In this document: positions 3 through 12,051 of the stretch, piece by piece | Position numbering within the stretch: the stretch's first letter is position 1 | Layout: each line of letters opens with the position of its first letter | NCBI GenBank assembly: GCA_046536775.1 | Contig: JAWDMD010000014.1 | Span: 1-12,051, forward strand | From: Candidatus Nanopusillus sp. | GTDB taxonomy: Archaea; Nanobdellota; Nanobdellia; Nanobdellales; Nanobdellaceae | Direction of reading: 5' to 3' | Length of the DNA stretch: 12,051 bases | Translations under genes and position numbers: made by a program | The notes under the pieces: model-generated | Told to the model about the DNA's origin: nothing | Seen by the model: the letters and a program-made list of their open reading frames with translations, nothing else | Database searches by the model: none

Positions 3-515
3 TTGGTAAATGAGGATAAAACTACAAGGCTTTTTGGATATTATATACCAGAAGTAAAGGATGTTGTAATTGGAAAAGTAATTGATGTACTATCAAATTT
101 ATGGATAATTGATATAAATTCTCCATATATGGGAAAATTATCTTTAAAAGATAGTGGAGCAGATCCCAACGACTTATATACCTATGGCGATTATATATTA
201 TGCCAGATTATAAAAGTAACAAAAAATAAATTAATAGATTTGGAGATTAAGAAAAGGGAAAAATTAAATGATGGGTTAATATTAAAAGTAGATCCTGCAA
301 AAATTCCGAGGTTGATTGGAAAAAACTCTTCAATGTTAAATTCAATCAAAGAAAATTTGAAAATAGATATAATAATTGGAAAAAACGGTAGAATATATTT
401 AAATGGTGATGTAAAAGATGTATCGAAAGCAGTAGATATTATCAGATTTATTATAAATAATTCTCATAAAAGGGGTTTAACTGAAAAGGTTAAAGAAATT
501 TTGGAAAATAAATAA
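3..515 (+). CDS. rrp4: Exosome RNA-binding cap subunit Rrp4 (S1 + KH domains); 5' end lies upstream of the window
   Basis: S1-like segment LFGYYIPEVKDVVIGKVIDV...WIIDINSPYMGKLSL. KH-like segment PAKIPRLIGKNSSMLNSIKENLKIDIIIGKNGRIYLNG. Stop is 2 nt before rrp41, the canonical rrp4-rrp41 order. The M at position 3 in the track is only the frame start at the window edge. Confidence 0.85.
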   Translation: MVNEDKTTRLFGYYIPEVKDVVIGKVIDVLSNLWIIDINSPYMGKLSLKDSGADPNDLYTYGDYILCQIIKVTKNKLIDLEIKKREKLNDGLILKVDPAKIPRLIGKNSSMLNSIKENLKIDIIIGKNGRIYLNGDVKDVSKAVDIIRFIINNSHKRGLTEKVKEILENK

Positions 516-517
516 AA

Positions 518-1273
518 ATGGTAAAAAGATTTGATGGTAGAGAATATAATGAACTAAGGAAAATAAATATAAAGTTAAATGTAGTGGATAATGCAAGAGG
601 ATCTGCAATATTTTCTTTTGGTGATACTGTTGCATTGGCTGCTGTATATGGACCAAAACCTTCAAAAATGTCCATAGATTATGATAAAGCATTCTTAAGG
701 GTTAGATACAATATGCTGACATTTTCTACACCTGAAAGAAAGAAACCTACACCGGGTAGAAGAGAGATTGAGCTATCTGAAGTAATTAAGAGAGCATTAG
801 AACCAGCATTATTATTAGAAGAAATTCCTGGGAGTATTATAGATATATATATTGAAATATTAAACGCAGATGCTGGAACAAGGACCGCAAGCATAAATGC
901 CGCATCTTTGGCATTATCTTTATCAGGTATTCCAATGAAAGATTTAGTAGTAGCTCTAGCAGTTGGAAAAATTGGAGAAAAAATCGTTGCAGATTTAAAT
1001 AAGGAAGAAGAAGATTACGATTCTGAAAAATTAAAGAAAGATCATGAGAAATCAAAATATATACAATATTATGGAGAAGGAAGAGCTACAGATATACCGG
1101 TTGCAATAATTCCTTCTGAGAAGAGATTTACTTTAATACAGTTGGATGGAGAAATTTCAAATAAAGAACTAAATGATGCATTAAATTTAGCATTAGAAAA
1201 AGCTTTAGAAATAAAAGATCTAATGAAGAATAGTATATTGGGACATTTATCTTCAGATAATTTTATTTATTAG
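518..1273 (+). CDS. rrp41: Exosome catalytic subunit Rrp41 (RNase PH fold)
   Basis: Rrp41 hallmarks: R-DGR-x-NELR near the N-terminus, GSA-F-GDT-A-AAVYGP, RY-M-FS-ERK-P-RRE-E-S, ADAGTRTASINAASLAL, and TDIPVA before LIQLDGE. Contains an extra ~20 aa block relative to the Rrp41 sequences I remember. Confidence 0.9.
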   Translation: MVKRFDGREYNELRKINIKLNVVDNARGSAIFSFGDTVALAAVYGPKPSKMSIDYDKAFLRVRYNMLTFSTPERKKPTPGRREIELSEVIKRALEPALLLEEIPGSIIDIYIEILNADAGTRTASINAASLALSLSGIPMKDLVVALAVGKIGEKIVADLNKEEEDYDSEKLKKDHEKSKYIQYYGEGRATDIPVAIIPSEKRFTLIQLDGEISNKELNDALNLALEKALEIKDLMKNSILGHLSSDNFIY

Positions 1274-1319
1274 TATTTTTATAACAAATTTTATAAAGTA
1301 CAAAATATTCTTAAATCAT

Positions 1320-2645
1320 ATGGGGAAAAATTATAAATATCTTATAATATTAATTTCTATTTTAAACTTTACCAACATTTATTCACAATCAAATAATTAT
1401 GTTTATACATGGTATAATGAATCTATAGGTACATTATATATAGATAAACAATTATTAGAATCAACCGCTAGTATGCTTTCTCAATATTTTAGTGCGCTTT
1501 CTCAATACTTAGGTCCTTTAGCACCAATTATTTTAAAAAATTTACCATATATAATAGAAAATTTACCAATTATAGCTTCATTTCTTGCTCTATTTTTTAT
1601 ATTTTATAGATTCCTAAATATTATTAATGAAAAATTGAATATTATCGATGAACATCCAAAAACAATCATTGGTATATTCTCACTGGGAATATCTCTAGTT
1701 GCTGCATACTTATTTTGGCCTTTTGTTATACCTATATTAGGTACCGCATTTATAATAAAAATATTTAGAATTGGTAAATCTAAATTGGAAAGTTTTAAAG
1801 AAAGCTTAGGTAAGATTAATCCTGGATTAATAAATTTCTTCTCAAAAGCAACAACAAATATTAGAGATTTTGATAAAGATACTGGTAAAGTTCTAAAAGA
1901 CATAAATAAAATAGATAAAATAATAAATCATCCTCGCATAAGAGAATTATTAAATTCTATAGAAAAAGATATAGAAACTTTAAATAATATAATATCCCAC
2001 CTATTAAAAGAAACTGAAAATGAGAAATTAACTCCATATAAATTAATAGCTTATTCATCAAAATTTGATCTAACATATAAGAATGCTATAAATAAAATCG
2101 AACAGTTAAATAGAACAATAAATACTATGCTTAATCCTTACTTATTGAGAAGAGTTGGAAATACAATATTTAGAACAAATAAATTTACACCAAAGTATTT
2201 AAGAGAACTAATAAATATATCAAAAGACTTGGATGGGAGATTAAAAAATACATACAATGAGGGTTATAAAATATTTGAAGGTTTAAAGGGATTCTTAATT
2301 TCTGCAGAAGCTACTAGTAGGGAATATAAAATTAAAATAAATAATAATTTAAACAGAATTCTTAATAATAGGAATTTTTTACCTCTATTTAATAACAATA
2401 AATCTATGACAAGAAAACTACAAGAAATAGAGAACACCGTCGTTGCTATTGATAAAAATCAAAATATACCTCCATTGAAAAAAGTGGAAATATTATCCGA
2501 AATACTTAACTTTACAAAAAAATTATCTAAATATTTACGTAAATTTAAGGGAAATCCAAAAAAATTATCAAACTTTATCAACAAAAATTTTAAGAAAATA
2601 ATTAACTCAACTGGAAGTGATTTAAAAACCTCTAAAAAACGTTAA
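1320..2645 (+). CDS. Hypothetical membrane-anchored protein: N-terminal signal/anchor, short ectodomain, about 3 TM helices, then a ~290-aa Lys/Asn-rich helical domain
   Basis: Long ORF in an AT-rich genome where random ORFs are short. Hydrophobic N-terminus YLIILISILNFTNIYSQ. TM segments LPIIASFLALFFIFYRFL and TIIGIFSLGISLVAAYLFWPFVIPILGTAFII. TATA-like ttttataaa sits about 25-30 nt before the ATG. No family recognised. Confidence 0.75.
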   Translation: MGKNYKYLIILISILNFTNIYSQSNNYVYTWYNESIGTLYIDKQLLESTASMLSQYFSALSQYLGPLAPIILKNLPYIIENLPIIASFLALFFIFYRFLNIINEKLNIIDEHPKTIIGIFSLGISLVAAYLFWPFVIPILGTAFIIKIFRIGKSKLESFKESLGKINPGLINFFSKATTNIRDFDKDTGKVLKDINKIDKIINHPRIRELLNSIEKDIETLNNIISHLLKETENEKLTPYKLIAYSSKFDLTYKNAINKIEQLNRTINTMLNPYLLRRVGNTIFRTNKFTPKYLRELINISKDLDGRLKNTYNEGYKIFEGLKGFLISAEATSREYKIKINNNLNRILNNRNFLPLFNNNKSMTRKLQEIENTVVAIDKNQNIPPLKKVEILSEILNFTKKLSKYLRKFKGNPKKLSNFINKNFKKIINSTGSDLKTSKKR

Positions 2646-2816
2646 TTAGAGCTAATTTGCGAGATTATTATATTCTTATTGAACTATTTACAAGAGTACA
2701 ATGTCCATAGCATCTAGTTATAGAGCTTTAAAATTAAAATAAAATGATAAAATTGTATTTAAGAAACTCAAATCTTTAGAAGGATCTATTAATAAAAGAT
2801 GCTTTTACTATCTTAC

Positions 2817-2948
2817 AGGTGATCTAAAAGATCTAACTAAACTTTACAAAAAACATCTTAATTTTTCATTTCCTAAATATTAAAGAAGATCTCTTCCTCT
2901 GAAATTCTCCAGCATAATTTACCAATCTTTCCAAACCTATAGAAATAC
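2817..2948 (-). pseudogene. Decayed partial copy of the Lhr-type helicase gene (antisense to the + strand) with an apparent ~396-nt internal deletion
   Basis: 2900-2939 is identical to 5104-5143 (40/40). The minus-strand reading gives IGLERLVNYAGEFQR, matching helicase residues ~169-183, with synonymous caa>cag and aga>agg at the edge. It then jumps to a tct tct tta (SSL) match with helicase T316-L319 (+ strand taaagaagat at 2881-2890 = 4692-4701). Further collinear short anchors: ttcc, catct (2854 vs 4661), aggtga (2817 vs 4638). Stops are present in frame. Only the 40-mer and its immediate flanks are secure. Confidence 0.5.
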
Positions 2949-3065
2949 GAAATTTCAAATAAAGAATTAAATGATGCATTAAATTTAGCATTAGAAAAAT
3001 CTTTAGAAATCAAAGAAATAATGAAGAATACAATCTTGAATACATATAAAGCCAGTACATTATAA
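2949..3065 (+). pseudogene. Orphan copy of the 3' end of rrp41 (38 codons plus stop, no 5' part)
   Basis: Hand alignment to 1151-1273 gives 82/90 nt identical over the first 30 codons, with only 1 difference in the first 51 nt. In frame it reads EISNKELNDALNLALEKSLEIKEIMKNTILNTYKASTL*, against EISNKELNDALNLALEKALEIKDLMKNSILGHLSSDNFIY* in rrp41. Homology starts abruptly at 2949. Confidence 0.85.
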
Positions 3066-3171
3066 CCTTTTATTTATTTAATATTTTTTATTTAATTTTT
3101 CTATATCTATTCCCTTTTTGTTATAATTATAAGAAAATAATTTATAAATTTTAACAAATTTATATAACAAA

Positions 3172-4491
3172 ATGGAAGGTACAAAAAATATTAATAAGAA
3201 GTTACTAATAACTATATTTACTTTTTTATTTCTAATAAGGTTTATATTTTCAGTATATCCCCAAGCAACATCTCCACAGAATAATGCAGCAAGTAGCTTA
3301 GAATCGAATTCTATTATTCAATGGATTATTAACTCTTCAGTTAGTGGTTATTCAACTGCAGGTCAATATTTAGCTAATTTTTTATCTATTAATGGAGTAC
3401 CATCCGATGTTTGGCCTATTATAGTATTTTTAATGACTACTTTATTCTTTATTGGAATATATACATTTATTTTTGAAATATTTGTACGAAGAATTGGATC
3501 AAACGAAGAAACAACGACAATGAAAAAAGCAAAAATATTATTTATATTTGCTCTAAGCTTATTTTCTGCAATATCAATAGGTTATGCTATACCATTTTTA
3601 TTTAGTCTTTATGGATTTGTTTTATTAATTGTTTTATTAATAGTTTTATTTTTCTTTGGAAGAGCTATTGTTTCTTATGGAAAAATTTTTCATCATTCAG
3701 TTGATCTTTTTGCAGCTCAGGTAAAAAAAAGTTTAATAGAGGCAGAAAAAGCAGCAAAAGATCTTCCTAAAGAAGAAGCAAATCTAATAACAGAAGGAAT
3801 AAAAAAGATTGAGGATCCTTATAATGCTGCAGAAAATGCATTGAAAGATGCAGAGAACAAATTTGAAAATGCTTTAAATATTATAATAAATGAACATGAA
3901 GAATTTATTAATAGTTTAATAAATGATTATAATAAATTTTTAAATAGTGGTATTGCAGCTTCATGGTCACCTAATGATCGAGATCTTGTAACTAAGCTTA
4001 TTGGAGAATCAAAAAATAAAATATATACAAATGAAGAAGAAGTAAGAAAAATATTAAACAATCCAGATAAACGAAATATACAAAATATACAACAAATCAA
4101 ATCAATAAGACAACTTCGTGATGATATATCAAACTACATCCAGGGACTTGGATTAAACGATGTACAAAAACAAGAATTACAAAATATATTACAGAAAGAC
4201 TATCAGGATACTATTAAAAAATATGAATATAAAATATCATCAGAAATAAATGAGTCAATAAATAAATACAGAGAAGCAGAAAATGCATTAGGGACACTCC
4301 AAGTATATGAAAAATTACTTGATAAACCTGTCTTAAAAATTAGGAGATCTTTAGGTGTTTATGGTGATGAAAAAGTAGAATTAGCAATGTTATCTAAATT
4401 AGAAGAATCAAAAAAAGGAATAGAGATATTAAAAAATTTAGTTAATGAAAGAATACAATCTATTGAAAAATTTCGAGCAACTATTTCTTAA
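3172..4491 (+). CDS. Hypothetical membrane-anchored protein, same architecture as 1320-2645; the helical domain includes a HEPN-like segment
   Basis: Signal/anchor LLITIFTFLFLIRFIFSVYPQ. TM segments WPIIVFLMTTLFFIGIYTFIFEIFV and ILFIFALSLFSAISIGYAIPFLFSLYGFVLLIVLLIVLFFFG. A ~275-aa helical region follows. Shares QYL, PII and LFFI (residues 91-94 in both) with the 441-aa protein. Residues 219-278 are collinear with the HEPN-like region of the 576-aa protein. TATA-like atttataaa sits ~25 nt before the ATG. Confidence 0.75.
   Translation: MEGTKNINKKLLITIFTFLFLIRFIFSVYPQATSPQNNAASSLESNSIIQWIINSSVSGYSTAGQYLANFLSINGVPSDVWPIIVFLMTTLFFIGIYTFIFEIFVRRIGSNEETTTMKKAKILFIFALSLFSAISIGYAIPFLFSLYGFVLLIVLLIVLFFFGRAIVSYGKIFHHSVDLFAAQVKKSLIEAEKAAKDLPKEEANLITEGIKKIEDPYNAAENALKDAENKFENALNIIINEHEEFINSLINDYNKFLNSGIAASWSPNDRDLVTKLIGESKNKIYTNEEEVRKILNNPDKRNIQNIQQIKSIRQLRDDISNYIQGLGLNDVQKQELQNILQKDYQDTIKKYEYKISSEINESINKYREAENALGTLQVYEKLLDKPVLKIRRSLGVYGDEKVELAMLSKLEESKKGIEILKNLVNERIQSIEKFRATIS
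3825..3851 (+). repeat. 27-nt exact repeat (copy 1) tgctgcagaaaatgcattgaaagatgc, encoding AAENALKDA
   Basis: Identical to the reverse complement of 8240-8266. Both copies are in frame in their genes. Confidence 0.95.
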
Positions 4492-4496
4492 GTAAT

Positions 4497-5648
4497 TTAT
4501 TTTTCCAATACAAACTTTTTAATTGCCAAACTTTCTGCATAATCATCTATATCCGTTGTAATTATATATCCAATAGATACTTCATGCAATTTATGACCTG
4601 CCCTTCCAATCCTTTGTATTAACCTTGTAACCTGTCTAGGTGAATTATATTGAATAACAGCATCTACATATCCAATATCTATTCCAAGTTCTAAAGAAGA
4701 TGTCGCAATAATTGCCTTAATTTTCCCTTCCTTAAATAATCTTTCATTTCTTTCCCTTACTTCCCTTGATAAAGAACTATGATGTATTTCAATTTTATAT
4801 TCAGGTAACCAAACCTTAAATCTCGAAGATAATAATTCCGCCATTTCTCTTGTATTTACAAATATTATTACAGATTTATGCTTATCTAATATTTCTTTTA
4901 TTTTTCTTAAGCTCCATGCTATTTTTGGATTCCAATTATATTTCTTTGCTAATTCTAAATCTTCTTCACTGATTTCTGGATAATATACTTCTATATGATA
5001 TTTTTTCTCTGAATACCAATATGCAATTTTATGATCCCTATATCCAAAAACAAATTTTGCAGCTTCATCCAGATCCCCTATTGTTGCAGATAATGCAATT
5101 CTTTGAAATTCTCCAGCATAATTTACCAATCTTTCCAAACCTAAAGATAATTGTATTCCTCTTTTTTCATTTAATAATTCATGTAATTCATCTACAATAA
5201 CATATTTTACTGTTTTTAGTTGTTCTCTTAATCTTTTTCCTAAAAATAATATTTGAAAAGTTTCTGGTGTTGTTATTAAAAATTCTACAGGTTTTTTAGA
5301 TAATCTTGCTCTTTCTTTTTCTTCTGTATCTCCATGTCTAACTGCAACAGATATACCTAAATTATCACACCACCATTTTATTCTATCTAATACATCTCTA
5401 TTCAATGCTCTTAATGGTGATATATAAATTCCTAATAATTGATTTTCAATCCCTTTTTCCTTTAATTCCAATATTTTTGAAAATACAGGTAATATTGCAG
5501 CTTCTGTTTTTCCAGATCCTGTAGGAGCAACAATTAAAGTATTATTTCCATTTAATATTTCAGGAATTGCTATCTTTTGAATTGGATAAAAATCTCCAAA
5601 TCTTTCAAAGAATAATTCCTCTACTTTTTTATTAAGATTATATGTCAT
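4497..5648 (-). CDS. lhr: Lhr-type (large helicase-related, SF2 DEAD/DEAH) helicase, RecA1+RecA2 core only
   Basis: Motifs: Q-motif FYPIQ; I APTGSGKT; Ia YISPLRALNRD; TTPE; II DELH; III SAT; V ATSSLELGIDIG; VI QRIGRAGH. YISPLRAL plus DELH plus ATSSLELGID is the Lhr-like flavour. The ORF ends ~35 aa after motif VI, so it is far shorter than the ~850-900 aa Lhr proteins. Its stop is 5 nt from the stop of the convergent 3172-4491 gene. Confidence 0.88.
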   Translation of the reverse strand: MTYNLNKKVEELFFERFGDFYPIQKIAIPEILNGNNTLIVAPTGSGKTEAAILPVFSKILELKEKGIENQLLGIYISPLRALNRDVLDRIKWWCDNLGISVAVRHGDTEEKERARLSKKPVEFLITTPETFQILFLGKRLREQLKTVKYVIVDELHELLNEKRGIQLSLGLERLVNYAGEFQRIALSATIGDLDEAAKFVFGYRDHKIAYWYSEKKYHIEVYYPEISEEDLELAKKYNWNPKIAWSLRKIKEILDKHKSVIIFVNTREMAELLSSRFKVWLPEYKIEIHHSSLSREVRERNERLFKEGKIKAIIATSSLELGIDIGYVDAVIQYNSPRQVTRLIQRIGRAGHKLHEVSIGYIITTDIDDYAESLAIKKFVLEK

Positions 5649-5818: not shown

Positions 5819-6358
5819 TTGCAAAATATTTTAAGGCAACAGAAGTTTATAGGATCATATTGTAATTATAATAAATATAGAACAATTTTAGGTAATAATT
5901 TAATATCTGAAATTTGTAAAGTTTCTAGCATTATAGATACAATGTCTGAATCAGTTTATAGAGAACGCGTTAGAATAGCAAGAGACATCGGAATATTAGA
6001 TAAAGAATTGCATAAGTATGTTAAAATATATGAGGAGGCATCATTACAAAATAGAAAAGATATTATAAAAGAATTAGAAGAACAAAAGTCAATAGTAGTA
6101 GAGGAATTAAATTCGGAAGTACAAGAAGAAAGACTTCTTAAAAATATTATTAGTTTACATAATGAAAAAGAAAAATTAGTAAATAATTTAATAACAATAA
6201 TTAGAAATAACGCTGTGAAGAAAGATTTTAATGAATTAAATAAATTAATCAAAAATGAAAAAAAGATAATAAATGAATTAAATAAATATATGAAGGAAAA
6301 TGAAAAGACTCTCAAAAATGAAGAAGGATCAATAAATAAGACAGAGCATATTATATAA
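5819..6358 (+). CDS. Hypothetical coiled-coil protein (Glu/Lys/Asn-rich)
   Basis: The open frame has no recognisable motifs. The track start at 5819 is TTG. The first ATG is at 5942 (MSESVYRERV...), which may be the true start. Confidence 0.5.
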   Translation: MQNILRQQKFIGSYCNYNKYRTILGNNLISEICKVSSIIDTMSESVYRERVRIARDIGILDKELHKYVKIYEEASLQNRKDIIKELEEQKSIVVEELNSEVQEERLLKNIISLHNEKEKLVNNLITIIRNNAVKKDFNELNKLIKNEKKIINELNKYMKENEKTLKNEEGSINKTEHII

Positions 6359-6369
6359 TATTAAAATTT

Positions 6370-7041
6370 TTAGTTTTTAATTTCTTTTTCTTCAATTAAA
6401 ATTCCATCTAATGTATATACTTCATATTTTTCTATTCTCTTTGTAATCGGACCATGAAATTCTCCAACATCCCATGATCCCGCCAAATCGGAAAATGCTG
6501 GTAAGATTATAATTACTTTATTATCTTTATATCCAAATATAAAAACTTTTTCATATATACTTTCTCCAATACTTGTAGAAATGCTTTTTGCAAAATGATG
6601 ATGTCCAACAACATAATATTTCCCCTTTAATTTTGTATTTAAATGTCCATGAGTAAATACAACATTTTTTATTTTAAGTGCTTTTAAAATTTTAACATTA
6701 TTTATCCCAGAAACCAATTCCTCAATGTCCCCATCATGATTTCCCTTTATTATATATATTTTCTTGAAGTATTGAGAACTTTCATTTATAAAATATGGAA
6801 TATCTGACATTTCTTGTAAACTTGTTTCAGGTATATTATGTTTTAAATCTCCATCAATGATTAAGTACTTTATTTTATATTTTTCATAAATTTTCCTTAT
6901 TTTATTTATATAATAATTTACTTGAGAAGGAATATTTATTCCCTTCCTATATAATTCCCTTTCGATTCCTATATGCAGATCAGAAATAACTAAAATTTTA
7001 TTAAAAAATATTAAACCCTCAGTTCCAGTAAATTTAAGCAT
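6370..7041 (-). CDS. Calcineurin-like metallophosphoesterase, MPE/PdeM-like (SbcD/Mre11-related small phosphoesterase)
   Basis: Complete metallophosphoesterase motif set: ISDLHIG, IDGDLKHN, IKGNHD, FTHGH, VVGHHH. The DLHIG-x-ERELYRKGINIP stretch after motif I resembles the DLHLGK...G..vP pattern of the ligase-associated PdeM/MPE family as I recall it. The start overlaps the L35Ae stop by 8 nt (ATGCTTAA). Confidence 0.85.
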   Translation of the reverse strand: MLKFTGTEGLIFFNKILVISDLHIGIERELYRKGINIPSQVNYYINKIRKIYEKYKIKYLIIDGDLKHNIPETSLQEMSDIPYFINESSQYFKKIYIIKGNHDGDIEELVSGINNVKILKALKIKNVVFTHGHLNTKLKGKYYVVGHHHFAKSISTSIGESIYEKVFIFGYKDNKVIIILPAFSDLAGSWDVGEFHGPITKRIEKYEVYTLDGILIEEKEIKN

Positions 7042-7378
7042 TAATTAAAATACTCTTTATTTGATTTATGTATTTTGCATTTTTTATTTTTTCCCTTATT
7101 TCATTTATTTTATCTATATTATCAATTAATAAAACAATATCTCCTAAAGCTTGTCCAGGTATTCCTTTATTAAATCTAGCCCTTAAATTACCTTTACTCC
7201 CATGTATATCAACAATCTTTCCAATAAAAATTTTCTTTCCTGGACTTACCCAAATTACATGCCTTCCAATATATTTACTTGCCTCATACTTATTATTTAT
7301 ATTTTCAAATTTTACTATTACCTGATTTGGATATATATGGTGCCTACCCATCCTATAATTTAATATTATTCCTCTCAT
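7034..7378 (-). CDS. rpl35ae: 50S ribosomal protein L35Ae with a ~27-aa C-terminal extension
   Basis: ILNYRMG...NQVIVKF...EASKYIGRHVIW...GKIVDIHGSKGNLRARFNKGIPGQALGDIV closely follows archaeal L35Ae, for example the Pyrococcus [22 protein letters not shown] block as recalled. Confidence 0.92.
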   Translation of the reverse strand: MRGIILNYRMGRHHIYPNQVIVKFENINNKYEASKYIGRHVIWVSPGKKIFIGKIVDIHGSKGNLRARFNKGIPGQALGDIVLLIDNIDKINEIREKIKNAKYINQIKSILINA

Positions 7379-7380
7379 CT

Positions 7381-9111
7381 CTATTTTGATATATAATAAT
7401 CTTTAAATATTTTATTTAGTAAACCAATAACATTATTATCTAGATAACTTAAACCATCTTTACTGAGATCTTTAATCATTTCTTCTCCATATTTTGGATC
7501 ATTAAATGTACCAATCTTATTCCCATTATAATCATATACTTCAATTTCATTTTCTGTTGCTATATATAATTTGGATTTTGACAAATATATATCATAATTT
7601 TTATTTTTTTCTTTATCGATTATAGAATACTTAAATCTTAATAATATTTCTTCCCTCTTATTTTCAATTAAATTTCTTATATTCCTAATATGATATAACA
7701 AAGATTCCTTTAATTTTTCCAATTCAATTATATCATACTTCTTTTCTTTATAATTCTTAATATCATTTTCCAAATTTTCTAATCCACTATATTCTATTGG
7801 CATTTTTTCTTTTACATAATTATTATATTCAACATTAAATAAATCTTGGAATTTTGTTTTTAATTCCTCATAAATTAATATATAATTATCCATAATCTTC
7901 TTTTCATTTTCTTTATCGATAATTTGCTTTATATTTTTCATTTCGGATATAAATTTCTCGGCTTTTTCAAATACATTCATTAAATCTTCATATTTATATT
8001 CATTCACCTTACCATGTTCAAAATCTTTCCTCATTTTCCATACTTCAGATAATATATTTACATATTCAATATTTAATATTCCTCTATCTACAAATAATTT
8101 TTTTAACATATCGGGAGTTTGTTTTGGATCTCCTGGTAATAAACCAGAATCCATTATTACTGCTTGAGCAGAAGTAACCATTGCAACTGCCAAATCTTCA
8201 ATTATCAAATTATTTATTATGTTTTTCAATTTATTTCTAGCATCTTTCAATGCATTTTCTGCAGCAATTATATATTTATTAGCAGCTTCTTGTGATGGTT
8301 TTAGAATTCCTTTCAATAATAATTGCTTCCATGAAATAAACATTCCCCTATCATATAATGGTATACCATCTCTTAAGAATGTAATTATTACCGGATTTGA
8401 TTCTGACATTGCTAACCAGAATTCTGTTAAAGTATAAACTTGTGGATGTAATTCTTTATTAGAGTTCACTAATATTTTTGCCTCCATTGCCTTATTTATT
8501 ATTAAATCCATCAATTTTATTTTTAATTCCTCAAATGTATGTTGTTTAACATCGGTATCATCAATTACAACATATATATCTACATCAGAAGATTCAACAC
8601 TACTCCCTTTTACTTGAGAACCTGCTAAAACATATGCAACAACATATCTTTGTAATATATCAATTATTAGTTTTTTATGAACACTTGTTAACCTAAATAT
8701 TTCAAATATTCCTTTATCATATATTATATTACCAACAGACAATAAATCCAATAATTCAAATCTTGAGTCCATTGCAATATTTTTTATGTCTTCAATCAAT
8801 AAAACATCTAACCATATATCCAACTTTTCATTTTTTATTTTCTGAAGATATTTTTCTAAAAATGATGCCTTTAATTTTATTTTTTCTTCTGGACTTAAAT
8901 CAAAATCTGATAAAATTATTATCCAATGCTTATAAACTTCTATCTCTCTTTTATATTTTTCAAACAAGTCATCACTTACCATTATGGAACCATAATAAAT
9001 TAATTCCTTCAATAGATTGTTTATATTCTCATTCTTTTCTTTAAATTCCATTATTCCAATTACTCTATCTTTATACTCACTATTTAATATATCGTCCTTA
9101 AGATCTACCAT
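7381..9111 (-). CDS. Pol-beta-superfamily nucleotidyltransferase fused to a HEPN domain, with an N-terminal degenerate NTase-like repeat and a ~170-aa C-terminal extension
   Basis: NTase signature LAGSQVKGSSVESSDVDIYVVIDD (GS...DxD). The downstream helical domain carries an R-x4-H motif, MRKDFEHG (R361-H366, 8014-8031), followed by EDLMNVFEKAEKFISEM, the typical HEPN layout. Residues ~60-160 (IIILSDFDL...LLDLLSVGNIIYDKG) parallel residues ~175-260 (DIYVVIDDTD...IITFLRDGIPLYDRG). The stop is 2 nt before the L35Ae start. Confidence 0.8.
   Translation of the reverse strand: MVDLKDDILNSEYKDRVIGIMEFKEKNENINNLLKELIYYGSIMVSDDLFEKYKREIEVYKHWIIILSDFDLSPEEKIKLKASFLEKYLQKIKNEKLDIWLDVLLIEDIKNIAMDSRFELLDLLSVGNIIYDKGIFEIFRLTSVHKKLIIDILQRYVVAYVLAGSQVKGSSVESSDVDIYVVIDDTDVKQHTFEELKIKLMDLIINKAMEAKILVNSNKELHPQVYTLTEFWLAMSESNPVIITFLRDGIPLYDRGMFISWKQLLLKGILKPSQEAANKYIIAAENALKDARNKLKNIINNLIIEDLAVAMVTSAQAVIMDSGLLPGDPKQTPDMLKKLFVDRGILNIEYVNILSEVWKMRKDFEHGKVNEYKYEDLMNVFEKAEKFISEMKNIKQIIDKENEKKIMDNYILIYEELKTKFQDLFNVEYNNYVKEKMPIEYSGLENLENDIKNYKEKKYDIIELEKLKESLLYHIRNIRNLIENKREEILLRFKYSIIDKEKNKNYDIYLSKSKLYIATENEIEVYDYNGNKIGTFNDPKYGEEMIKDLSKDGLSYLDNNVIGLLNKIFKDYYISK
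8240..8266 (-). repeat. 27-nt exact repeat (copy 2, inverted), encoding AAENALKDA (residues 283-291 of the NTase-HEPN protein)
   Basis: The reverse complement equals 3825-3851. Confidence 0.95.
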
Positions 9112-9135: not shown

Positions 9136-9660
9136 TTATATTCTTTTTTCAAACCACTGATTTAGCGATTTATAATCTATGTCTTTTTTAATTTCTTCCT
9201 TTTCTTCGGTTTCTTCCTTTTTTTCAGAATTTAAATAATTTTGACTTATTTTTATTAATTCTGTAGTTATATAGTTCTTTAATTCTTCTAAAAAAGACGG
9301 ATCTTCTCTAAATCTATTGAAATATATCTTAATATTATCATCTTTAAACCTTGGTATAACTTGAATAATAATGTGTTTATGTTTTTGACCAGTTTCTCCA
9401 GAAGATAACAAAATATTTAATCCATCAAATTTCAATTTATTTTTTAATATTATTGATATATATTTTGAAATCGTAAACATTTTCTGATTTATTTCATCAC
9501 TTAAACTTGTATAATCTTCTATATGTAATTTTGGAAAAATTAAAAAAGATCCTTTTGAAGGAGGCAAAATATCTAATACACACATTATATCATTATCTTC
9601 ATATAAAATATAAGATGGTAATGTTTTATTTGCAATTCTACAATATATACAATCATCCAT
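9136..9660 (-). CDS. HIT-superfamily protein with a degenerate histidine triad and an acidic/lysine-rich C-terminal tail
   Basis: N-terminal C-x-x-C (CIYCRI), then YEDNDIMCVLDI.P.SKGSFLIFPKLH, and GQKHKHIIIQVIPRF. This aligns without gaps to GQEVNHVHFHIIPRY of a Methanocaldococcus HIT protein as I recall it. Confidence 0.85.
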   Translation of the reverse strand: MDDCIYCRIANKTLPSYILYEDNDIMCVLDILPPSKGSFLIFPKLHIEDYTSLSDEINQKMFTISKYISIILKNKLKFDGLNILLSSGETGQKHKHIIIQVIPRFKDDNIKIYFNRFREDPSFLEELKNYITTELIKISQNYLNSEKKEETEEKEEIKKDIDYKSLNQWFEKRI

Positions 9661-9696: not shown

Positions 9697-10677
9697 ATGA
9701 CAAATTACCTAATAATTATCATATCAACCCTAATACCTTTACTTATATATGCTTTTCTAATATACTTATCTGAAAACATTATATTAAAGTACATTGGAAA
9801 ATATTCAAAATACTACTCTTCATGGCCAGAACATTATTTATTAATATATACAGCAGGAATAGCCTCCGCTTTGCAATCTTTTTTACCAGGTCTAGTAGTA
9901 GCATTAAATGGAGACCCAAAGCTAGGATATTATTTTCAATTATATAATGTAGTATTAGATTATACAATTACTTTAGGTACTTTTATATTAGCATTTAATT
10001 TTGAAAAGGGAATGATTGATAGCAATGTACTTTCCTTAATTATGATTTCAATAATAGCACAGGTTTTTGTATTAATATTTAAACAAATAAATTTCTTTTC
10101 TGGATCTATTTTATACATCATATTTATTGCGATTTCTATATTTTTATTATATAAATATAGAAGAAAAAGTGAAAAGAGTATATATATACCAAAAAGTTCA
10201 TTTTATGAATATTTTAAGGCAATGGTTTTTTCTTTAGAAATTGCTCTAGCAATATCAATAATATATATTGGTGGAAATATATTAAATAATATTTCAAATA
10301 CTTTACAAGGATTAAATCTATCTATACCATTAATTGGTTATGCAATATCCTTAATTTTATTTACATTACCAGATATAGTATATGGTCATTTTTCTTGGTT
10401 TAAAAAGAAGGATCTTAATATTAGTATGGCATCAATATCTGGAGAAGAGATATCAGAATTTACAATATTTACAGGAATTCTTGGAATGATATCTCCCATA
10501 AAATTTTCTAGCCAAGATGTTATACCAATTATTTCGTCATTTTTAGTTTTATTAATTTCTATTGTAATATTATACATATCCTCATATAAAAAAAGAATAC
10601 CAAAATGGGTCGGAATTTTATTGATTTCTTTAGGTATTATAATTGGATTTGTAGATGGTGTAGCAAATCTATCATAA
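9697..10677 (+). CDS. Polytopic integral membrane protein (~9-10 TM), possibly a divergent CaCA (Na+/Ca2+ exchanger-like) family member
   Basis: Almost continuously hydrophobic 326-aa ORF. Two spaced motifs, SSWPEHYLLIYTAGIAS and FTLPDIVYG, loosely resemble the paired GTSxPE alpha-repeats of cation/Ca2+ exchangers. The family call is weak. Confidence 0.7.
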   Translation: MTNYLIIIISTLIPLLIYAFLIYLSENIILKYIGKYSKYYSSWPEHYLLIYTAGIASALQSFLPGLVVALNGDPKLGYYFQLYNVVLDYTITLGTFILAFNFEKGMIDSNVLSLIMISIIAQVFVLIFKQINFFSGSILYIIFIAISIFLLYKYRRKSEKSIYIPKSSFYEYFKAMVFSLEIALAISIIYIGGNILNNISNTLQGLNLSIPLIGYAISLILFTLPDIVYGHFSWFKKKDLNISMASISGEEISEFTIFTGILGMISPIKFSSQDVIPIISSFLVLLISIVILYISSYKKRIPKWVGILLISLGIIIGFVDGVANLS

Positions 10678-10871: not shown

Positions 10872-10904
10872 CTATGTACATCATATATCATATGATGTAC
10901 ATAG
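10872..10904. repeat. Perfect 33-nt palindrome (15-bp arms, 3-nt centre) ctatgtacatcatat-atc-atatgatgtacatag
   Basis: The arms are exact reverse complements. Each arm contains the self-complementary octamer atgtacat. A further palindromic acatatgt lies at 10906-10913. Confidence 0.95.
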
Positions 10905-10994: not shown

Positions 10995-12051
10995 ATTCCC
11001 GTTGATCCTGCGGGGGGCCATCACTATCTCCCTCCGACTAACCCATGGGAGGCTAGGGATACCGGGCATGGTATCCCGTCGTACGGCTGAGTAACACGTC
11101 GATAACTCTGCCTCGGGAGGAGAATATCCTCGGGAAACTGAGGATAATTCTCCATAGGAAATGGGGTGTGAAATTCCCCCATTTCCGAAAAGGACTGGGA
11201 TAATCCCTCTCAGTTCCGCCCGAGAGGAGGTCGGCGGCCTATCAGGTAGTTGGCGGGGTAATGGCCCGCCAAGCCTAAGACGGGTAGGGGCCGTGAGAGC
11301 GGAAGCCCCCAGATCGGCACTGAGACAAGGGCCGAGGTCCTACGGGATGCACCAGGGGCGAAACCTCCGCAATGGGTGAAAGCCTGACGGGGGGAGGGAG
11401 AGTGCCTGGAGTTTTCTCCAGGCTTTTGAGGAGTGTAAAAAGCTCCCAGAATAAGCAGTGGGCCAGAGGGGTGGCAGTCGCCACGGGAATACCCCCGCTG
11501 CAAGCGATGGCCTCGATTACTGGGCCTAAAGGGGCCGTAGCCGGACTAGTGTGACTCCTGTGAAATCCACGGTAATAATTCCGTGGGCGTGCAGGGGTTA
11601 CTACTAGTCTAGAGGACGGAAGAAGCCAAGGGTATTCCCGGGGGAGTAGCGAAATGCAGCAATCCCGAGAAGACCACCCGAGGCGAAAGCGCTTGGCTAT
11701 TCCGATCCTGACGGTGATGGCCGAAAGCTGGGGGATCAAAAGGGATTAGAGACCCCTGTAGTCCCAGCTATCAACGCTGTGAGCTACCTGCTGGGTGGAC
11801 TTAGAGTCCACTTAGTGGGATAGGGAAGCCGTTAAGCTCACCGCCTGGGGAGTACGGCCGCAAGGCTGAAACTTAAAGGAATAGGCGGGGGGGCACACAA
11901 GGGGTGGGGTGTGCGGTTTAATGGGACCTAACACCGGAAACCTTACCGGGAGCGACAGCAGGATGATGGTCAGGCTGAAGACCTTACCGGACACGCTGAG
12001 AGGAGGTGCATGGCTGCCGTCAGCTCGTGCCGTGAGGTATCCTGTTAAGTC
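10995..12051 (+). rRNA. 16S (SSU) ribosomal RNA, archaeal, 5' ~1057 nt; 3' end beyond the window
   Basis: Starts with attcccgttgatcctgcgg. Contains ctacggg...gcaatggg, the 530-loop region, gggcctaaag, ggattagagacccctgtagtcc, aaacttaaaggaataggcggggg, and gtgcatggctgccgtcagctcgtgccgtgagg in the expected order and spacing. All track ORFs here are artefacts. Confidence 0.97.

Follow-up and report, generated by a model that had tools for sequence, protein, structure and literature searches.

An identical word of 27 nucleotides (nt) is present in two genes of a 12,051-base contig belonging to a metagenome-assembled genome of Candidatus Nanopusillus sp. (Nanoarchaeota, ∼24% G+C), a tiny hot-spring archaeon; the whole of this contig is termed the window below. 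One of the genes, mem2, specifies a membrane protein of 439 amino acids (aa), and the other a 576-aa protein with a nucleotidyltransferase (NTase) and a HEPN domain. The identity is probably (we would put it at about 0.62) the footprint of a very short (18–27 nt), ectopic and non-reciprocal gene conversion in which sequence of the NTase-HEPN gene was copied into mem2. A first-pass annotation of this DNA had proposed either a micro gene conversion or a constraint at the nucleotide level; the former gained support, in that the donor copy is ancestral and the derived changes run toward the NTase sequence, and the latter was rejected. The features on which the argument turns are as follows.

3825–3851, forward strand: copy of the 27-mer in mem2, the putative recipient; identity exact, with lineage-specific changes toward the NTase sequence
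8240–8266, reverse strand: the NTase-HEPN gene's own 27-mer, where HEPN helix 1 begins, the putative donor; conserved in orthologues
3172–4491, forward strand: mem2, 439-aa membrane protein; N-terminal transmembrane region (aa 1–175) conserved, C-terminal domain helical
7381–9111, reverse strand: 576-aa NTase-HEPN fusion protein, conserved across DPANN archaea

The two copies are identical at the DNA level

The word TGCTGCAGAAAATGCATTGAAAGATGC at 3825–3851 on the forward strand has its exact reverse complement at 8240–8266, the two copies being 4.3 kb apart in inverted orientation and each in the sense orientation of its own mRNA. In both genes the word is in frame and reads AAENALKDA; it spans the third base of codon 218 to the second base of codon 227 in mem2, and the third base of codon 282 through codon 291 in the NTase-HEPN gene. 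Its borders are sharp, as all 27 of 27 bases match and the bases at 3824 and 3852 already mismatch the NTase gene. No match to the 27-mer was obtained in 200 dinucleotide shuffles, even with up to 3 mismatches allowed. When the codon order of mem2 was shuffled 3000 times, the longest word in common with the remaining window sequence was typically 14–15 nt and at most 23 nt, compared with the 27 nt observed. Given the same peptide, the probability of exactly these codons was ∼0.009 under the codon usage of the window, mainly because TTG makes up just 13% of the Leu codons here. As the shuffles never reached 27 nt and the codon match is so improbable, the identity is a fact of the DNA and not a side effect of a common peptide. 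The exact, in-frame inverted repeat described in the first-pass annotation was thus confirmed by both sequence comparison and shuffling.

The 27-mer occurs twice within the window. In metagenomes from JGI the exact word was found in four related contigs, once in each and always in the NTase-HEPN gene, and it was not found in the viral contigs that were searched. A dispersed repeat or mobile element was rejected on this distribution, which covers the window, the JGI metagenomes and the viral contigs; in these sequences the word is not a dispersed repeat unrelated to either protein family, which was the outcome that the first-pass annotation had named as fatal to its proposal.

The 27-mer is ancestral in the NTase-HEPN gene and derived in mem2

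Comparison of orthologues indicates that the 27-mer is ancestral in the NTase-HEPN gene and derived in mem2. All Nanopusillus and Nanobsidianus orthologues of the NTase-HEPN gene encode AAENALK(D/E)A with nearly the same codons, the changes being synonymous or confined to the D/E position, and the exact 27-mer is common to the closest relatives of the window in this gene. The mem2 alleles match the NTase 27-mer at 7, 10, 13, 14, 18, 19, 21 and 21 of the 27 positions, compared with 27 in the window. At this site the mem2 family consensus is Y-N-E-A-E-N-A-x-x-x-A-(D/E)-x-K-F-x-N, and AENALK-A nearly reproduces the consensus by column of the 90 family members; the first Ala (GCT) was seen in no member other than that of the window. 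One allele, that of contig L012, encodes AENAL by other codons (GCT CTT), so selection at the peptide level does not force these bases.

The ancestral state was reconstructed by parsimony on a codon alignment of the window against four alleles (L001, L015, L011 and L012). The most parsimonious mem2 ancestor read AAT GAA GCA GAA AAT GCA TCG GAA GAT GCA, and matched the NTase sequence at 23/27 bases with an exact core of 13 nt. The changes specific to the window within this stretch (GAA>GCT, TCG>TTG and GAA>AAA) amount to four base changes, all of them toward the NTase sequence, and those just outside the patch (GAT CCT upstream and AAC downstream) are not toward it. By our own arithmetic, the probability that four random substitutions would fall at exactly the four mismatched sites and introduce the right bases is ∼6e-7 (order 1e-6).

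Two other explanations bear directly on these comparisons. The first is convergence by chance, in which a mem2 helix that already resembled HEPN helix 1 had its match completed by point mutation in a fast-diversifying domain. The residues A-E-N-A-L-K-D-A are each the commonest or second commonest in their column of the 90-member family, related alleles already stand at 18–21/27 matches, and the domain evolves fast (non-synonymous divergence, dN, of 0.32 between near-clonal genomes), all of which would favour it. However, the four lineage-specific changes would have had to hit only the four mismatches and with the right base each time; moreover, the first Ala has no parallel in the family, the rare Leu codon TTG is common to both genes, and the codon shuffles fell short of 27 nt. 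We therefore regard chance convergence as unlikely. The second is a functional constraint on the nucleotides themselves, with both mRNAs bearing a 27-nt site for a common trans-acting factor such as a small RNA or an RNA-binding protein, an idea that fits the sense orientation of both copies. This is hardly credible, as the mem2 orthologues vary freely at the site and do not keep it even in near-clonal relatives (7 to 21 of 27 matches), the NTase copy itself varies synonymously between species, and no Rfam family was found in this region.

Similarity beyond the patch is short

A longer but imperfect similarity surrounds the 27-mer, and a second, shorter copy of its core is present downstream in mem2.

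3825–3897, forward strand: similar stretch of 73 nt in mem2, 77% identical to the reverse complement of 8194–8266; probable pairing substrate
8194–8266, reverse strand: the other arm of the 73-nt similarity, located in HEPN helix 1 of the 576-aa protein
4276–4289, forward strand: second AENAL site in mem2, a 14-nt exact copy of 3829–3842 (BLAST E = 0.46)

The 73-nt similarity is ungapped and corresponds to 23 aa at 65% identity (BLASTP E = 1e-4, as a single comparison). The mem2 arm specifies A-(D/E)-x-K-F-x-N-x-L, a pattern that the family conserves, with A227, F231 and L235 invariant or nearly so. The first-pass annotation had described a collinear similarity of ∼60 aa, of which these 23 aa stood; once they were removed, the remainder gave a Smith–Waterman z of only 1.4–1.8 against shuffles (p ∼0.07–0.1), which is not significant. 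A single gapped local alignment could be drawn through all of the further segments that had been listed, but this added almost nothing to the score. The mem2 segments concerned, SGIAASWSPNDRD and QLRDDISNY, are not conserved across the membrane-protein family and lie in its most variable, indel-rich part, whereas the corresponding residues of the NTase-HEPN protein, GLLPxDPKETP and R-K-x-x-E-H, are nearly invariant. The differences between the two 73-nt arms are not adenine-specific and a domain search found no reverse transcriptase among the proteins of the window, on which grounds a target site of a diversity-generating retroelement was rejected.

The recurrence of AENAL further along mem2, also noted in the first-pass annotation, is real, but a 14-mer match of this kind is at chance level on its own in so AT-rich a window. 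It depends on a double change specific to the window, AAA>GCA at codon 369 (4285–4287), where relatives have AAA or AAC; this is a further derived multi-base change toward the core of the 27-mer.

mem2 does not contain a HEPN module

The HEPN domain of the 576-aa protein, against which mem2 was compared, is defined together with its companion domain by the following features.

7933–8274, reverse strand: HEPN domain, aa 280–393; PF05168 and 2hsb profile match
8014–8031, reverse strand: R-x4-H motif (R361..H366)
8440–8667, reverse strand: minimal nucleotidyltransferase (Pol-beta-like) domain, aa 149–224; PF18765

Profile matches and conserved motifs together indicate that this protein carries a genuine NTase plus a genuine HEPN domain. 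PF05168 matches it at profile positions 4–116/117 (E = 0.006, under the Pfam gathering score), and the profile of its family matches PDB entry 2hsb (AF0298, UPF0332) over residues 282–396 with E = 9.3e-7. Within the HEPN motif no variation was seen at R361, K362 and E365, and four of the 27 sequences depart from His at H366. PF18765 matches with E = 6e-6 (26.7 bits against a cut-off of 26.9 bits), an MntA-like match has E = 5e-6 and is below its curated cut-off, and in the NTase motif G-S ... D-x-D the residues G164, S165, D176 and D178 are invariant. The patch forms the first turns of HEPN helix 1. Like the MNT-HEPN systems (type VII toxin–antitoxin MntA-HepT; UPF0332, PDB 2hsb), the protein has an NTase of Pol-beta type followed by a HEPN domain with a conserved R-x4-H, but it is a single fusion located among housekeeping genes across DPANN archaea and not a two-gene toxin–antitoxin pair; mem2 is not a member of this group. 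The fusion also has long additional N- and C-terminal regions, is 90–99% conserved within the genus and ∼30–40% across Woesearchaeota and other DPANN archaea, and its gene always adjoins the L35Ae and HIT genes in the loci compared here.

The first-pass annotation had suggested that the cytoplasmic tail of mem2 begins with a HEPN-like, probably catalytically altered module, and pairwise, profile and structural comparisons found no significant similarity to HEPN beyond the patch. Comparison by hhalign of the C-terminal mem2 family with the HEPN region, both as regions and at full length, gave a probability of 1.5% (27 columns, E = 0.033). The tail of mem2 gave no match to PF05168 in Pfam, even at E ≤ 10, and NCBIfam and PADLOC searches gave no support for HEPN in mem2. 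A profile search of the PDB returned no HEPN structure for mem2, its best matches being the coiled-coil or helical-bundle proteins IncA (E = 0.003), Hbl-B and apolipophorin. An exhaustive hidden Markov model (HMM) search with the C-terminal profile, covering 1.84 billion representatives, recovered 14 proteins and no HEPN relatives; 11 of the 14 were strong matches (E ≤ 1e-10) and members of the family, and the other three were borderline and unannotated. In an AlphaFold2 model of mem2, residues 200–390 had a predicted local distance difference test (pLDDT) score >90 and formed very long helices; the patch falls midway along one of 58 residues. Foldseek comparison of this model with the PDB gave only generic long helical bundles, with E of at least 0.01, and no HEPN structure. 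The model also lacks the compact up-down bundle of four to five helices, with a helix 1 of ∼25 residues, that characterises the HEPN fold. Lastly, the R-x4-N of mem2 in QLRDDISNY is not conserved; other members have T, Y, H or L in place of the R, and differ at the N as well.

These results bear on the possibility of true homology, according to which the mem2 tail would start with a degenerate module derived from HEPN and the patch would be its best-kept remnant. The gapped alignment through the three segments, the position of the sole hhalign match on the same helix and the resemblance of the mem2 family consensus itself to AENALK-A can be cited for it. Against these stand the low hhalign probability and the lack of HEPN relatives in the Pfam, PDB and exhaustive profile searches, the modelled long helix with no HEPN counterpart in Foldseek, and the residues GLLPxDPKETP and R-x4-H, which never vary in the NTase family but are missing or variable in mem2; in addition, ancient homology is unable to explain identity at synonymous sites. 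Homology of this kind is accordingly very improbable, and we conclude that mem2 has no HEPN module and that no homology between the two genes can be detected.

The patch lies at the edge of a hypervariable domain

The setting of the patch in mem2 was examined by comparison with related loci, which also drew in a second membrane-protein gene, mem1.

3750–4491, forward strand: hypervariable, mosaic C-terminal part of mem2, 58–82% identical to relatives that are otherwise 98–100% identical
1320–2645, forward strand: mem1, 441-aa membrane protein

The metagenome contigs L001 and L002 are 98–100% identical to the window almost throughout, but only 58–82% identical between ∼3750 and the 3′ end of mem2. 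The transmembrane, N-terminal half of mem2 is identical in near-clonal relatives (synonymous divergence, dS, of 0.012). Its C-terminal half has dN 0.32, dS 0.25 and a dN/dS of 1.27, compared with dN/dS values of 0.04–0.23 for the neighbouring genes; mem1, with a dN/dS of 0.87, behaves like mem2. Along the mosaic mem2 alleles, near-identical blocks take turns with others that are below 50%, and the contigs of relatives often end near the variable region. The 27-mer sits at the 5′ edge of this hypervariable domain. The mem2 family is confined to Nanopusillaceae.

mem1 and mem2 form a distantly related pair (∼23% identical; hhalign E = 2.6e-5) in which the transmembrane halves at the N terminus hardly vary and the helical halves at the C terminus are hypervariable; the genes around the pair are highly conserved ones with housekeeping roles. 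The Chlamydia inclusion membrane protein IncA (6e6a), the best solved-structure match of the mem2 family profile, was matched over residues 209–333 (3796–4170); IncA likewise consists of a transmembrane hairpin and a helical bundle, and has a role in membrane fusion. The match is weak and may be due to coiled-coil composition.

An excess of non-synonymous variation has been described for hypothetical membrane and surface proteins of Yellowstone-type Nanoarchaeota (Jarett et al., 2018, PMC6142677). mem1 and mem2 show the same excess. That study, however, reported categories of genes, in which we did not find the mem2 family named, and in the present case the transmembrane half hardly varies, the variation being restricted to the helical domain at the C terminus.

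Probable short-tract gene conversion and its difficulties

The conversion that we favour might have proceeded as follows. The mem2 family already had, fortuitously, a similar stretch coding for an amphipathic helix (73 nt, ∼77%, with the 13-nt exact core) that resembled the start of the HEPN domain. The two stretches, inverted and 4.3 kb apart, could have paired as a heteroduplex during recombinational repair, and a patch of 18–27 nt would then have been resolved in favour of the NTase strand. The tract in mem2 would cover at least 3827–3844 and at most 3825–3851. Resolution was presumably without crossover; no inversion was seen in any relative, gene order and orientation being unchanged. An event of this sort is a known kind of process with no evident function, and adds one more variant to a domain that was already diversifying.

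Several observations weigh against this reading. The tract is extremely short, and its flanks are only ∼70–77% similar, which makes them a poor substrate for homologous recombination. The mem2 allele of the window is known from a single metagenome-assembled contig and lacks independent confirmation: no counterpart was retrieved when this mem2 protein was looked up in the contig index, and no other contig has the 27-mer in mem2. The ancestor was reconstructed from four alleles in a mosaic, recombining region. Between the window and L001 the flanks differ as much (∼23%) as the patch does (6/27, 22%), so that the patch is no island of difference. Finally, the direction is not fully settled: the NTase gene has a GAT (Asp) specific to the clade, and mem2, in which Asp is frequent at this position, might in principle have been its source.

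The single contig also raises the possibility of an artefact of assembly, binning or consensus, in which case no real cell would have the 27-mer in mem2. Strain variation in the mem2 region and the breaks of relatives' contigs around it are in keeping with this. On the other hand, both flanks of the patch are unmistakably mem2-like and continuous with it, the reading frame is intact, and the word previously shared by the two genes, of only ∼13 nt, would be insufficient to mislead an assembler. An artefact is therefore decidedly unlikely, and a chimeric assembly at the repeat was rejected in view of the mem2-like flanks on both sides.

Gene conversion on a comparable scale is familiar from other systems. 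Microconversion between dispersed paralogues, such as human CYP21A2 and CYP21A1P, copies tens of bases between loci and leaves an identical block inside diverged surroundings, as seen here; there, however, donor and recipient are paralogous, whereas no homology between mem2 and the NTase-HEPN gene was detectable outside the patch. Segmental gene conversion also operates in antigenic variation, for example at vlsE of Borrelia. There too a variable membrane or surface gene gains short patches and turns mosaic, but by the repeated action of dedicated arrays of homologous donor cassettes, whereas in the window one patch would have come from a gene of housekeeping type. The ves genes of Babesia bovis (PMC7485966) are a further example.

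Closer to the present case, conversion in Sulfolobus acidocaldarius is of a short-patch, discontinuous kind, in which a tract may comprise just one marker (Grogan review, PMC4471258, citing Mao & Grogan 2012). The likeness lies in non-reciprocal, very short and sharply bounded tracts arising from heteroduplex without crossover, in a hyperthermophilic archaeal host without MutS/MutL. The Sulfolobus tracts, however, were between true homologues that had been introduced experimentally (PMC4471258), whereas the partners in the window are unrelated chromosomal genes, alike over 73 nt at 77%, and the event is deduced by comparison only.

A duplication relic and the search for other patches

The gap between mem1 and mem2 contains two gene fragments joined head to head.

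2897–2943: helicase relic, 47 nt, 96% identical to 5101–5147
2949–3065: relic of the Rrp41 3′ end including the stop codon, 91–94% identical to 1151–1240

The arrangement resembles what an old tandem duplication from 1151 to 5147 would leave at its junction, and was found in all Nanopusillus and Nanobsidianus loci examined. The relic is 91–96% identical to its parent genes, whereas mem1 and mem2, the paralogues that the same duplication would have created, are only ∼23% identical. That the relic is so much closer to its parents than mem1 is to mem2 suggests concerted evolution. In one locus (L010) the parent and the relic have a unique substitution in common, which suggests short-tract conversion in this locus and would provide a local precedent. 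A 41-aa open reading frame (ORF) on the minus strand (2866–2991) crosses the relic junction, reads the helicase-derived fragment in its original frame and is annotated as a gene in JGI contigs; being intact in the closest relatives only and broken in L007–L010 and L012, it is unlikely to be a real one.

It is conceivable that the C-terminal domains of mem1 and mem2 in Nanopusillaceae are habitually diversified by templated copying of short patches from similar helix-coding stretches genome-wide, which would amount to a cassette-free, antigenic-variation-like mosaic mechanism in an archaeal ectosymbiont, acting on proteins with an architecture (transmembrane hairpin and long helical bundle) that faintly recalls IncA. 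The AAA>GCA change at codon 369, the apparent concerted evolution of the relics and the mosaic alleles are hints of this. However, when nine loci were scanned for further donor patches in mem1 and mem2 (exact repeats of at least 17 nt), the relic aside, only AT-rich 17–19-mers at chance level were found, so there is no evidence for habitual patching, and we consider both the mechanism and the parallel with antigenic variation very doubtful. In the locus of N. acidilobi 7A (L009) an 18-nt exact repeat, TATAATGAAGTAAGAAAA (YNEVRK), occurs at 7703–7720 and 10658–10675 of that locus; it links the 5′ part of Rrp41 with the mem2 site that bears the 27-mer in the window, is AT-rich, and is within chance for a locus of 21 kb, although its placement is a curious coincidence.

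Other features of the window

The remaining genes of the window are listed below; their order is maintained in N. acidilobi 7A, Nanobsidianus stetteri and other relatives.

3–515, forward strand: Rrp4 (3′ part)
518–1273, forward strand: Rrp41
4497–5648, reverse strand: DEAD-box helicase
5819–6358, forward strand: 179-aa ORF
6370–7041, reverse strand: metallophosphoesterase
7034–7378, reverse strand: ribosomal protein L35Ae
9136–9660, reverse strand: HIT protein
9697–10677, forward strand: 326-aa membrane protein
10995–12051, forward strand: 16S rRNA (5′ part; Rfam RF01959, 929 bits), the gene continuing past the end of the window

The 179-aa ORF, which separates the helicase gene from that of the phosphoesterase, was found in the closest relatives only. 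It had no match in Pfam, NCBIfam or PADLOC; tblastn found none in L007–L010, and it is not called in L012. L005 matches at a C-terminal fragment only, and the match in L006 is split at residue 23/24. A near-perfect palindrome of 33 nt is located at 10872–10904, ∼90 nt upstream of the 16S rRNA gene, and is perfect in L001.

Significance

The analysis reveals no new HEPN-bearing membrane protein and no new system, and in that sense the repeat is a modest curiosity. It also carries a caution for annotation, in that an exact shared patch does not imply a common domain. If the conversion is real, it would be a clean natural example of the small size that conversion tracts can have in a hyperthermophilic archaeon of reduced genome, with ∼20 bases copied between genes that are alike by chance in one helix only, and a small data point on archaeal recombination outside the laboratory. 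For Nanopusillus itself, the fast-evolving mem1/mem2 pair are candidate host-interaction proteins.

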